From a virus (Duplodnaviria > Heunggongvirae > Uroviricota > Caudoviricetes), in the IMG/VR virus record IMGVR_UViG_2690316267_000010: a DNA stretch of 18,636 bases; one strand, 5' to 3'. The notes under the pieces are model-generated. The model worked only from the letters and a program-made list of their open reading frames with translations. It had not been told where the DNA came from and made no database searches. Numbering within the stretch: the first letter of the stretch is position 1; each line of letters opens with the position of its first letter. The position numbers and the translations under genes were made by a program. Positions 9,263 to 13,322 of this stretch are shown here, in pieces.

Positions 9263-9483
9263 GCCACACCTCCCAGACGCTTAAACATTTTTCCGGAGCA
9301 AAAGGCTATAAGCGGCATACTGACGCGGTAATTACGGCCCAGCGGTTCACAAACCACCTTCTGACATTCACGGTCAACCAGGCTAACACGTAGAACATGC
9401 CCAGCAGGCGTGGTGTACCACTGACCCGGACGAGGACAACGGAAAGTATGATTGGTAAACCGTTTGAAAATATTCCGGATCAT
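9259..9483 (-). CDS. Hypothetical protein (74 aa)
   Basis: ATG overlapping the stop of the upstream Rha-domain gene (ATGA); sits inside a tightly coupled operon. Confidence 0.45.
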   Translation of the reverse strand: MIRNIFKRFTNHTFRCPRPGQWYTTPAGHVLRVSLVDRECQKVVCEPLGRNYRVSMPLIAFCSGKMFKRLGGVA

Positions 9484-10640
9484 TTGCGCCCCCTTACCTC
9501 TGAAGGGTTCAGCGACAAATTTATGAGACTGGCCAGCGCCGAAGCATCATTAATATAGTCATATAAGCTAACAGCCAGCGGAGATTCGGCTTTTGCCAAC
9601 ATAGGATAAAGCTGCTGCAGCCAGACCTGATGAATTGATGAAATGTAGGAACAGAGAACGCTGGCGTTATGTGCAACGTCGCTCGGTACAGCGGGCTTTG
9701 AAAGCTGTTTCTCCATCTGGTTAAAGGCATTTATGTATGCCTCTTTGAACCGGGCAGCACGTTTACCCGTGAAACCCATAGCAAGAAACGCAAAACCGTC
9801 TCGTGTGATTTGATAGCAAGGGAGCTTGCGTGTACCACCGTTCGGTTGATTTACCGAAATCGATGTCTCCGCAAAATTGCGGGCACAAAACTCTGGGGAA
9901 CAATCCAGAGTGCGGATCTTTTTCAGCACATCGTCGTGACGCTTGGAGAAGAAGTTGGCAACAGCCAAAGAAGTGGTAACGGCCTGGCCGTTGTCAATGG
10001 TGATTTCAGGTTGAGTGAGGGCTGGGATCGTAGCCATGATGGCAGCCTCCGTTGACAGTGAAAAACTTCCACCACCGGAAACGCCAATTTCACTGGTGGT
10101 GAACTGGACGGGGTTGGCGTAACCGGCGTCAACGGAGACCGGCGCACCTTTCGGTGCCCCCGCCCAGCCCACCATAATCTGGATGTGAGCAAATGCGGAC
10201 GATAAAAAAGACGCTGGCGCGTCATACATCGCCGTTGACAATTTCAGGACGCCAATCCCGGCACCCGCTTTATAAGGTGCCTGAGCAGTGTAACGTCCCG
10301 GAATTGCAGAATCAATATGCTGGTGGTCCTTCACACTCAACAAAATCACGCCTGAATTTCCACAAAGGACTAAAGCACTCATGCGGGTAGTCTTTGCGAA
10401 GATAGATAACGCGCTGTGTTTCTGGCTCCCAACGAATAACATGGACATAAAGCCCTCTTCCGTCACGAAACCAGCGGTTAAGTTCCTGCACAACTCGCCC
10501 CCCACAGTCAGGTAAAGTTCTCTGTGGTTACTTACAGCCAGGTGATTTGGTAATCTGCATTCATGCCGTAACAACAGGTGTTCAGCGACGCTGACCACCA
10601 GCTGTTGCGACAAACGGTTATTTGCCGTTAAACTATTCAT
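9480..10640 (-). CDS. Rha-family phage regulatory domain protein with a long unrecognised N-terminal region
   Basis: 386-codon stop-free frame; ATG overlaps the YdaT-like stop (ATGA). Residues ~220-320 (VTTSLAVANFFSKRHDDVLKKIRTLD...CYQITRDGFAFLAMGFTGKRAARFKEAYINAFNQME) match the Rha domain; the first ~215 aa were not recognised. Confidence 0.55.
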   Translation of the reverse strand: MNSLTANNRLSQQLVVSVAEHLLLRHECRLPNHLAVSNHRELYLTVGGELCRNLTAGFVTEEGFMSMLFVGSQKHSALSIFAKTTRMSALVLCGNSGVILLSVKDHQHIDSAIPGRYTAQAPYKAGAGIGVLKLSTAMYDAPASFLSSAFAHIQIMVGWAGAPKGAPVSVDAGYANPVQFTTSEIGVSGGGSFSLSTEAAIMATIPALTQPEITIDNGQAVTTSLAVANFFSKRHDDVLKKIRTLDCSPEFCARNFAETSISVNQPNGGTRKLPCYQITRDGFAFLAMGFTGKRAARFKEAYINAFNQMEKQLSKPAVPSDVAHNASVLCSYISSIHQVWLQQLYPMLAKAESPLAVSLYDYINDASALASLINLSLNPSEVRGRK

Positions 10641-11447: not shown

Positions 11448-11544
11448 ATGACCTCCACATATTGCGTGATGAGCATATTATTTCACGCAAATATTTTGCG
11501 CAAGTTGATTTGCTTAACGCGCAATAAAGAAATGTAATAAACGC
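11448..11544. promoter_or_regulatory. OR-like divergent control region between cro-like and cI-like genes
   Basis: 97-bp AT-rich intergenic region with repeated TTGCG/CGCAA half-sites: TTGCGTGATGAGCAT (11462-11476), TTGCGCAA (11496-11503), TTGCTTAACGCGCAA (11510-11524). Confidence 0.5.
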
Positions 11545-12237
11545 ATGAACATAGGAAACCGAGTCAGACAACTTCGCCAGGCGAAGAACATGAAAATCGC
11601 CGATCTCGCTGAAGCAATAGGAGTGGATGCGGCGAATATCTCACGCCTGGAAACAGGTAAGCAGAAACAATTCACTGAACAAGCCCTGAGTAATATTGCC
11701 AGGAGCTTAGGTGTTGATATTGCTGATCTCTTTACCTCAGACGTCAAAAGTAATACTGTATGTAAAAACAGTATTAGTGAGGATGTTGCGCAGGTGAAGG
11801 ATGTATTCCGTATTGAAATGCTGGATGTCAGTGCCAGTGCGGGAAATGGCCTTATCCAGGGCGGTGATGTCATTGATGTGATTCATGCCATTGAATACAG
11901 AACTGATAATGCTGTATCGATGTTTGGCGGACGGCCAGCCAATCACATTAAAGTTATCAACGTTCGTGGGGACAGTATGTGTCCAACCATTGAGCCAGGA
12001 GATCTCATCTTCGTTGATGTCAGTATCAATCAGTTTGATGGAGATGGTATCTATGTATTTGGTTTTGATGATAAAATTTATGTCAAACGACTGCAAATGA
12101 TACCTGACAAACTACTGGTGATTTCTGATAACCAGATTTACCGTGAATGGGGAATTACCAGCGAAAATGAACACCGGTTTATGGTCTTTGGAAAGGTCTT
12201 AATCAGCCAGTCACAAACCCTTAAGCGACACAATTAA
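11545..12237 (+). CDS. CI-type prophage repressor (N-terminal HTH + C-terminal LexA/S24 peptidase-like domain)
   Basis: 230 aa; N-terminal XRE HTH (KIADLAEAIGVDAANISRLETGK); C-terminal S24-like region with GDSM (Ser) and downstream KR (FVDVS...YVKRL). Confidence 0.85.
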   Translation: MNIGNRVRQLRQAKNMKIADLAEAIGVDAANISRLETGKQKQFTEQALSNIARSLGVDIADLFTSDVKSNTVCKNSISEDVAQVKDVFRIEMLDVSASAGNGLIQGGDVIDVIHAIEYRTDNAVSMFGGRPANHIKVINVRGDSMCPTIEPGDLIFVDVSINQFDGDGIYVFGFDDKIYVKRLQMIPDKLLVISDNQIYREWGITSENEHRFMVFGKVLISQSQTLKRHN

Positions 12238-12257
12238 CCCTTACCTCCTCATCAATT

Positions 12258-12281
12258 AGCCACCCAAAGGTGGCTTTTCAT
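12258..12281 (+). terminator. Intrinsic terminator after the repressor gene
   Basis: AGCCACC-CAAA-GGTGGCT hairpin followed by TTTT, 21 nt after the stop codon. Confidence 0.6.
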
Positions 12282-12292
12282 TACCCTTTAAA

Positions 12293-12331
12293 TTGCATAT
12301 CTCGCAATAAAAACACTTGCATAATGCGCAA
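12293..12331 (+). promoter_or_regulatory. OL/PL-like operator pair
   Basis: Two 15-bp near-palindromes TTGCATATCTCGCAA (12293-12307) and TTGCATAATGCGCAA (12317-12331), same TTGC-N7-GCAA pattern as the site at 11510-11524; promoter hexamers not confidently placed. Confidence 0.5.
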
Positions 12332-12776
12332 CTTCATTTTATCTTTCTTTCCAGACAAACAAACAAGGTACTAACAAAATTTGGTTGTAACACGGCGTAT
12401 GGCACATGCGTCGTTAGCGGTCTGGGGACGTTAAAGGGGACAATCCACTCCTTGCTCGAGCAAACAAACCAGGTAGCCGGAATGTGCAAGTCAATGATGA
12501 TGCTGATAAGACGCCTAACCAGCGTGGCGGTTCGGTTTGACACCTGGGAAGAGACCAGGGTGCAACGATGAGGGCATTTATGGAACCGCGACAAAGTGTG
12601 GTGCCGTAACTGGCTAAGTGCTCTCAGCGTTGTGGTGAATGCGCAGGCTGATGCGCGAAAGACATTGCAGCTATTGCGGAAAAGAGCTGTTCGGCGGGGC
12701 AATTAAACGCCCGTGAGAGTCTGAAATAACCGCAAGCCGGAGATCAGCACCGGTCACCACAACAGCCACTGCTTTG

Positions 12777-12822
12777 GCGGTACCAGTTTGTACACTTGCT
12801 TCCGGCTGGTACCGCTCTTTTT
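12777..12822 (+). terminator. Intrinsic terminator within the early-left leader
   Basis: Perfect 10-bp inverted repeat GCGGTACCAG ... CTGGTACCGC (loop 19 nt) followed by TCTTTTTT. Confidence 0.5.
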
Positions 12823-12911
12823 ACAAAACAGAGAAGAGCATCACCGGCCGACGGGCTCATAACCCAATCCATCCGGGCGGCTGCCACCGCAGGTGTTCTT
12901 CTCTGTTTTGT
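12823..12911 (+). repeat. Long inverted repeat (17-bp arms, 16/17 matches, ~55-nt spacer); possible structured leader RNA
   Basis: ACAAAACAGAGAAGAGC (12823-12839) pairs with GTTCTTCTCTGTTTTGT (12895-12911); lies between the leader terminator and the first early-left gene. Confidence 0.5.
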
Positions 12912-12959
12912 GGAGAAACCAACCGACCTTGCAGGGTCGATATGATGAGGAGCAGCAAA

Positions 12960-13322
12960 ATGGCTAGCGAACGCAGTACTGATGTGCAGGCATTTATCGG
13001 GGAGCTGGACGGCGGCGTATTTGAAACCAAAATCGGCGCTGTTCTCAGTGAAGTCGCTTCCGGTGTGATGAATACGAAAACCAAAGGTAAGGTCTCGCTC
13101 AACCTGGAAATCGAACCATTTGATGAGAACCGTGTGAAAATCAAACACAAACTCTCATATGTTCGCCCGACTAACCGCGGGAAAATTTCCGAAGAAGACA
13201 CCACCGAAACGCCGATGTATGTCAATCGCGGTGGTCGCCTGACTATTCTGCAGGAAGACCAGGGACAATTACTGACTCTTGCCGGTGAACCTGACGGAAA
13301 ACTCCGCGCAGCAGGTCATTAA
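12960..13322 (+). CDS. Hypothetical protein, 120 aa (same size and position as CPS-53 YfdP)
   Basis: ATG with GAGGAG RBS 8 nt upstream; the longer track ORF (TTG at 12774) is rejected because it begins inside the terminator hairpin. Confidence 0.5.
   Translation: MASERSTDVQAFIGELDGGVFETKIGAVLSEVASGVMNTKTKGKVSLNLEIEPFDENRVKIKHKLSYVRPTNRGKISEEDTTETPMYVNRGGRLTILQEDQGQLLTLAGEPDGKLRAAGH

Follow-up and report, generated by a model that had tools for sequence, protein, structure and literature searches.

The whole stretch of DNA that was analysed here (the window, 18,636 nucleotides, to which all positions refer) is from a lambdoid prophage of the SfV / mEp460 / cdtI type. A gene for a cI-like repressor (HTH plus S24 peptidase) lies at 11545-12237 on the + strand, and the - strand has cro (11447-11187) and a gene similar to CII/YmfL. 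Behind the repressor gene there is a terminator at 12258..12279 on the + strand, composed of a 7-bp GC-rich stem and then a T-run, the equivalent of which is annotated in the SfV record. It is followed by the OL-type operators (12293..12345 region, + strand), with TTGCATATCTCGCAA at 12293-12307 and TTGCATAATGCGCAA at 12317-12331. Their motif TTGC-N7-GCAA, present at 12293 and 12317, recurs twice between cI and cro, at 11462 and at 11510. Based on these operators and those in the cI/cro spacer, it is reasonable to infer a rightward PL promoter at about 12317-12345, which would have its -35 element TTGCAT at 12317, a 17-nt spacer and its -10 element TATCTT at 12340. The first early-left gene, of the yfdP family (12960-13322, + strand), is preceded by the Shine-Dalgarno sequence GAGGAG at 12947-12952, and downstream of it the + strand carries yfdQ (DUF2303), a yfdR-like gene and an excisionase gene. 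The ATG at 12960 is 629 nt away from the second OL-type operator, in agreement with the gap of about 630 bp that had been given in an earlier note on this DNA. The early-left leader from the putative PL to that ATG, about 610 nt long, is untranslated, and it is left unannotated by RefSeq/PGAP in an identical copy. In order, it holds an element X, sRNA-17 with a terminator T, a long hairpin E, a small hairpin F and the SD sequence of yfdP. The interval of main concern here, 12777-12911, holds two adjacent RNA elements, T and E, inside this one leader.

The terminator T (12776..12824, + strand) is where the earlier note had placed a strong terminator, at 12777-12822, and the folding calculations bear this out. 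The hairpin at 12776-12816 has a 13-bp stem and a 15-nt loop, with dG of -20.8 kcal/mol and z = -5.1, none of the 200 shuffled sequences being as stable, and is followed by C-UUUUU-AC at 12817-12824 (U-tract 12818-12822; sequence CUUUUUAC). T thus has a hairpin with a direct U-tract (UCUUUUU), as an intrinsic terminator should, and a 3' end mapped in vivo by RACE (PMC7719688). It is noted that a simple consensus scan for terminators, in which only loops of 3-8 nt are allowed, missed T because the loop of T is 15 nt. The sequence CGCUCUUUUUACAA at 12813-12826, across the junction of T and E, resembles the boxA consensus CGCUCUUUAACAA; the homologues do not keep its GCUC part, and the resemblance is therefore probably due to chance.

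The RNA that ends at T has been described before. sRNA-17 is a 193-nt RNA from an mEp460-like prophage of E. coli K1 RS218, which was characterised by 5'/3' RACE and northern blot and was published as having no Rfam homologue (PMC7719688). The 16 published sRNA-17 oligonucleotides, among them those for the full-length RNA, RACE, northern blot and knockout, all match the window exactly; the full-length primers bracket 12628-12821, and those used for 5'-RACE and northern blot have the antisense orientation relative to the + strand. From these exact matches it follows that the terminator of the earlier note is the 3' end of sRNA-17 (12628..12821, + strand), and this half of the finding is already known. 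While the published work concerns the same locus, with the 193-nt RNA stopping at T, it presents sRNA-17 as a free-standing ArcA-regulated sRNA and makes no mention of the PL-leader context, the tRNA-like fold, the relation to STnc100 or hairpin E (PMC7719688).

The predicted fold of sRNA-17 is a tRNA-like cloverleaf closed by the helix GUUGUGGUG/CACCACAAC, followed by a linker and the terminator. The STnc100/PasD prophage sRNAs (RF02076) share this build, in which a closing helix and internal hairpins are followed by a linker and a terminator. With the Rfam STnc100 model, the homologue of sRNA-17 in SfV gives a full-length match of 39.5 bits and that in ST64B a match of 35.1 bits, both below the cut-off (47 bits), and the model gives no match to the window's leader even at E <= 10. 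Since the two homologues are below threshold and the leader copy is unmatched, sRNA-17 appears to be related to STnc100 but not to be a member of it. Its location is also different, namely in the early-left leader and not downstream of late-region tRNAs. A canonical STnc100 is present elsewhere in the window (1529-1722, - strand), where it lies tail to tail with AgvB (1467-1528, + strand), downstream of three late-region tRNAs (2495-2742, - strand).

Viral contigs of the phiV10 type have tRNA-Arg(UCU) in place of sRNA-17, with a homologous trailer and terminator after it, and Phytobacter has another tRNA there. sRNA-17 occupies the slot of a tRNA gene in related phages. In phiV10 itself (L127 2742-2818) this tRNA-Arg(UCU) is called by ARAGORN and is unannotated in the record, and it overlaps the hypothetical gene PhiV10p04 on the other strand. 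sRNA-17 can also be likened to IsrK of Gifsy-1, a prophage sRNA of which terminator read-through yields a longer mRNA isoform with structured control downstream (PMC4825925). Unlike in that system, a search for complementarity of sRNA-17 to E or to the yfdP 5' UTR and ribosome-binding site gave no signal above shuffles.

Upstream of sRNA-17, the 5' part of the leader is the conserved structured non-coding module that we call element X (12379..12627, + strand). X is 78-82% identical to the trnI-ban spacer of P1 (L126 2501-2685) and to the region of phiV10 just 5' of tRNA-Arg(UCU) (L127 2501-2745), and it is also present in D6 and SPC32H. It occurs in at least 120 viral contigs with a length of about 165-250 nt, is unannotated everywhere and has no match in Rfam. 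Its hairpins show compensatory changes, for example CCUGGGAAGAGACCAGG / CCUCGGAAGAGACGAGG / GCCGGGAAGAGUCCGGC, and non-triplet indels as well. Mapping of the published qRT-PCR primers of sRNA-17 gives an amplicon of 12379-12774, which spans both X and sRNA-17, and therefore X is co-transcribed with sRNA-17; the same X served as a 'promoter fragment' in that study (PMC7719688). X is located where putL is located in HK022, and we regard it as a candidate for the element that lets the polymerase past T. A likeness of 12393-12460 to putL that is seen by eye (ACGGCG..CAUGCGUCG) finds no support from the put model described below. The leaders of SfV, ST64B, Flotzy and phiNP begin, just after PL, with a different covarying module, AACAGGCAGGACGCCCACGAAGUAGCCGCC-NGG-GGCAUAUGAAG-NCC-NGGAUGAUUCG (L033 2200-2290, L034 2440-2510, L035, L036); it is absent from the window and has no put-model match.

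The second element of the interval is hairpin E (12818..12916, + strand), a 99-nt hairpin with a three-way junction and a 25-bp lower stem, as delineated by folding, covariation and the covariance model R2. The earlier note had recognised in it an inverted repeat with 17-bp arms directly after the terminator. These arms, 12823-12839 and 12895-12911, pair perfectly as RNA, with one G-U pair, and form the core of E, the base of which is made by the U-tract of T and its pairing partner GGAGA (12912-12916). E has dG of -48.2 kcal/mol and z = -6.5; a weaker fold is obtained for the opposite strand (z = -3.6). RNA folding, which had been suggested as a check, thus places both the terminator and the repeat far beyond chance.

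yfdP loci were gathered from one genome per species, and the structure was assessed across Enterobacterales in an alignment of 20 sequences, A1. In this alignment 97.6% of the cells of E that should be paired are paired, a share that drops to 43-58% once the partners are shifted against each other, and 9 pairs have changed on both sides, with none of 500 shuffles reaching the observed values; the covariation in relatives on which the earlier note had made its proposal depend is therefore present. Among the pairs, U-G are plentiful and A-C almost none, and R2 scores 140.6 bits in the window while the mirror match scores 33 bits. Because U-G pairs are common, A-C pairs are rare and the mirror score is low, E is an RNA of the + strand. 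Only one copy is found by R2 in the window, at 12818-12962, and a second, putR-like copy in the PR operon is not found there by the same model. Against Rfam 15, E belongs to no family, the sole overlap being a chance-level fragment of the hairpin ribozyme with an E-value of 6.3. E is thus a conserved, single-copy, + strand RNA structure that is coupled to a terminator and is not a put RNA, and the hairpin half of the finding is a real and widespread RNA motif that is so far undescribed.

The architecture around E is also conserved. In most yfdP loci a terminator with its U-tract comes first, then the long hairpin, then GUGGAGAAAC, then a small hairpin and finally the ribosome-binding site. The lower stem of E is 22-25 bp long in 24 of 24 loci, with 0-3 interruptions, and the length of the third arm varies by 1, 2, 13, 16 and 25 nt. 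Two Providencia loci have the same hairpin with unrelated sequence. In every locus examined a terminator precedes E, also where the sequence of T is unrelated (Flotzy, Providencia), and in phiV10-type cassettes the U-tract is likewise the base of a small hairpin that follows. At the 3' foot of E, the conserved GUGGAGAAAC (12910..12919, + strand) contains a Shine-Dalgarno-like GGAG; the nucleotides G95 G96 A97 G98 A99 are invariant in A1, and GUGGAGAAAC is kept in Providencia and in a Buttiauxella variant that is without E. Between E and the ribosome-binding site there is the small GC-rich hairpin F (12924..12939, + strand; helix 6, 96% paired), in which a G-U variant among the E. coli copies fits an RNA of the + strand.

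The unit is found in 2492 of the 5426 complete E. coli genomes (about 46%) and also in many Enterobacterales other than E. coli. A comparison of 80 E. coli viral contigs places the mosaic joint immediately 5' of T, which implies that T, E, F and yfdP travel together; E is retained where yfdP and yfdQ are deleted. Variant loci include L007 2944-3003 of Buttiauxella, the contigs L015/L016, and L003/L011. One variant is a clean loss of T and E, with the tRNA-like domain joined to GUGGAGAAC; yfdP is kept without E in Buttiauxella L007 and in L015/L016, some variants have T and no E, and in some E. coli loci iteron-like TCTGACGG repeats stand before yfdP in place of the leader. A duplex between the conserved linker UGCUGUGUGUAGUC and the 5' arm of E is inconsistent across lineages, and this linker is absent from the window. 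Inspection for a promoter inside E gave no credible -10 element.

The apical arm of E, CGGGCUCAUAACCC (12852..12865, + strand), agrees in all of its 14 nt with the anticodon stem-loop of the E. coli initiator tRNA-fMet, a sequence that was verified as 'tRNA-Met' in 5426 of 5426 genomes with about 4 copies per genome. The pattern GGC..A...CCCAA.C is invariant in A1, GGGCUCAU..CCC being near-invariant while the neighbouring helices covary, and Providencia keeps UCAU-type loops. It should be noted that the mimicry is imperfect, because in several genera the anticodon-like arm has two and not three G-C pairs and because positions 37-38 of the apex loop, which in E is CUCAU, vary (AA, UC, UA). The arm is different in the tRNA(CAU) that the phage itself encodes, and a complete tRNA fold is found in 12240-13000 neither by ARAGORN nor by the Rfam tRNA model. 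A pairing of the loop CUCAU with the start region of yfdP does not hold, since positions 37-38 do not covary with -1/-2. The thrS operator is a mimic of a tRNA anticodon arm in a 5' UTR, and E is similar to it in that a hairpin of an mRNA leader copies such an arm. The two are different in that the arm in E is that of the initiator tRNA-fMet, at a distance of about 95 nt from the start codon.

We now consider how the early-left genes are entered. The SfV / ST64B / mEp460 / LLS lambdoid group is without N, and the early-left control in this group is an open question in the literature. In the recent work on LLS (Genome Research 2025, PMC12315714), N is stated to be absent in the group, and a put-like RNA was only speculated, for LLS, ST64B and phiNP. 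The earlier note had likewise seen no N-like antiterminator gene. A check of the small ORFs in 12340-12960 gave no conserved N-like ORF, and for a lambda N/nut system, which has N as the first PL gene and a boxA-boxB nut site, there is in this region no arginine-rich N gene, no conserved ORF, no antiterminator match in Pfam or PHROG, and only the unconserved boxA look-alike at the junction of T and E. Both observations that the earlier note had named as counting against its element, a conserved N-like ORF in the interval and lack of covariation in relatives, were thus looked for and neither was found. Its proposal of a cis-acting RNA element in the early-left leader is upheld by the conserved, covarying structure after a genuine terminator. 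By contrast, the more specific suggestion of put-like antitermination or of an attenuator is unsupported. E resembles putL and putR of HK022 in that a structured RNA, acting in cis, stands in a PL leader and in that the lambdoid phage is without N; the HK022 put RNA, however, has two short stem-loops (CGAACGGC..GUCGG..GGCGGG..AGGAUGA..GCAAU) and E is one long hairpin with a three-way junction that matches it neither in sequence nor in structure. The covariance model R1, made from 7 put RNAs (HK022, HK639, phiEt88, CobraSix, S9-5), recovers all its training copies with 65-101 bits and gives nothing with an E-value below 3 in the window, mEp460, SfV, ST64B, Flotzy or phiNP. The put RNAs, which work through the zinc-binding domain of the polymerase beta' subunit, stand upstream of the terminators that they suppress and are in both early operons, whereas E begins at the U-tract of T, downstream of the terminator hairpin, and is in one copy. 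Since E is not yet transcribed when the polymerase decides at the U-tract, E cannot antiterminate or attenuate T.

Based on these results, we put forward, as a tentative reading to which we give somewhat less than an even chance, that E is an element of the 5' UTR that is formed only in read-through transcripts and acts after transcription, on processing or on translation. T would stop most of the transcripts coming from upstream, making sRNA-17 and shielding the early-left genes. The polymerases that read through T, a passage that would be independent of E, would transcribe E, and the U-tract would then become the bottom of a 22-25-bp duplex capped by the three-way junction. This two-turn duplex would be a substrate of the RNase III type, the cleavage of which would part sRNA-17 from the yfdP-yfdQ-yfdR mRNA and would set the 5' end and the stability of the latter. 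The apex with its loop CUCAU and the GGAG at the foot of E would tune the translation initiation of the first gene.

Several features are consistent with this reading. RNase III acts on near-perfect duplexes of about two turns (>= 20 bp), which is the case for the 22-25 bp in the 24 loci, and the constant length of the duplex may suggest recognition by this enzyme, while the conserved apex and GGAG suggest an added link to translation initiation. Two systems of lambda are the closest analogies. One is the N-leader RNase III hairpin of lambda, which is a long duplex in the early-left transcript, as E is, the cleavage of E being a prediction. The other is the sib/tI retroregulator, of which the full structure is present only in terminator read-through RNA; E also needs read-through for its full structure because the U-tract is part of it, though E is a separate hairpin next to the terminator and not an extension of the terminator stem, and has in addition a conserved apex. 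On the other side, an RNase III site alone leaves the conserved apex unexplained, the anticodon-arm mimicry is imperfect, and the Buttiauxella locus and L015/L016 with yfdP and no E imply that E is dispensable for yfdP expression as such. Moreover, sequestration of the yfdP ribosome-binding site by the leader, through long-range pairing with the stretch 5' of T, is predicted in the E. coli copies and is not conserved.

It could be argued instead that E is a decayed remnant of a phage tRNA cassette with no specific role, an inert structure that for example shields the leader from Rho or nucleases. The leader as a whole is indeed pieced together from tRNA-associated modules, the apex looks like a piece of a tRNA and some yfdP loci do without E. 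This is nevertheless unlikely, considering that compensatory changes occur across genera, that the stem length and the loop sequence are constant and that the coupling to a terminator survives the replacement of both sequences; such a maintained structure with constant stem and loop and with terminator coupling indicates purifying selection on specific features.

A rather unlikely explanation is that the apex engages a factor recognising tRNA-fMet. The anticodon arm of tRNA-fMet is recognised by the 30S P-site with IF3, by MetRS and by anticodon nucleases such as the enteric VapC. Correspondingly, the apex could engage the P-site with the help of GGAG, MetRS as in the thrS operator, or an enteric VapC-type nuclease for which E would be a decoy or sensor. 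The identity over 14 nt, the near-invariant GGGCUCAU..CCC amid covarying helices, the invariant GGAG at the foot and the UCAU-type loops even in Providencia would all be expected from such an engagement. But only the arm is present, with no match by the tRNA model or ARAGORN, several genera have two G-C pairs and U or C at 37/38, no published precedent was found for an initiator-tRNA anticodon-arm look-alike of this kind, and a stoichiometric decoy is a weak strategy against an enzyme. A more speculative form of the idea, which we consider quite unlikely, is that E presents the initiator-tRNA arm mimic, borne by the mRNA, on a rigid two-turn helix beside GGAG, so as to dock to the 30S P-site/IF3 for an IRES-like loading or parking of the ribosome, or else to serve as bait or sensor for tRNA-fMet-specific anticodon nucleases such as VapC, and that it is made only on escape from the sRNA-17 terminator.

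Equally doubtful is that E belongs to a new class of processive antiterminator or anti-pausing RNA, put-like in function and not in family, which would modify the polymerase after T against Rho and later terminators. A phage group without an N homologue, for which a put-like RNA has been speculated (PMC12315714), a conserved structured leader RNA and a long untranslated leader exposed to Rho speak for such a class. It would need, however, terminators to overcome, and E lies after the only strong one; in the consensus scan (with loops of 3-8 nt, by which T itself was missed) the + strand shows no strong terminator from 12960 to about 16160. In addition, the put model is blank, there is one copy with none in the PR operon, and a perfect duplex of 22-25 bp is unlike the V-shaped put RNA of 70 nt.

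That the region codes for protein, by a 49-aa ORF on the + strand (12796-12945, phrog_33599) or a 134-aa ORF on the - strand (12744-13148, phrog_3651; annotated in mEp460 and cdtI), is very improbable in spite of the PHROG families and of the annotation in some phage records, as neither frame is conserved, the indels of 1, 2, 13, 16 and 25 nt fall in the variable arm, Providencia and many other genera have stop codons within the frames, a periodicity of three is not clearly seen, PGAP leaves the leader blank and neither ORF has a Pfam match. These two ORFs overlap T, E and yfdP antisense, and the two PHROG families probably come from over-called genes, because the frames are unconserved across genera. 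Finally, att sites often carry tRNA-gene identity, and the inverted repeat, its 14-bp identity to a tRNA gene and rare recombinants that break inside E could point to a cruciform, a protein-binding palindrome or a recombination or att-like site, but action as DNA is hardly credible when its conserved U-G pairs would in DNA turn into mismatches (T-G and A-C), the covariation is strand-specific (33 bits for the mirror against 141) and E is far from int/xis.

With these results, the leader of the SfV / ST64B / mEp460 / LLS group can be described as a chain of RNA modules: first X, then a tRNA-like sRNA that ends in its terminator, then a conserved hairpin specific to read-through. The 'orphan' sRNA-17 gains a context, as a product of the PL leader that is tRNA-derived and STnc100-related. 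E is a new, testable motif backed by covariation, of which the coupling to the terminator and the initiator-tRNA-like loop are targets for mutation.

In addition, it is noted that elsewhere in the window the Rfam models of C4 antisense RNA and isrK have matches at 10092-10280 on the - strand, inside a 386-aa 'Rha' ORF (9480-10640, - strand), and that these matches coincide exactly with the Pfam Phage_ASH domain of this ORF (aa 117-212). Either the start of the 'Rha' ORF is over-called, or translated RNA genes make up part of its protein family.
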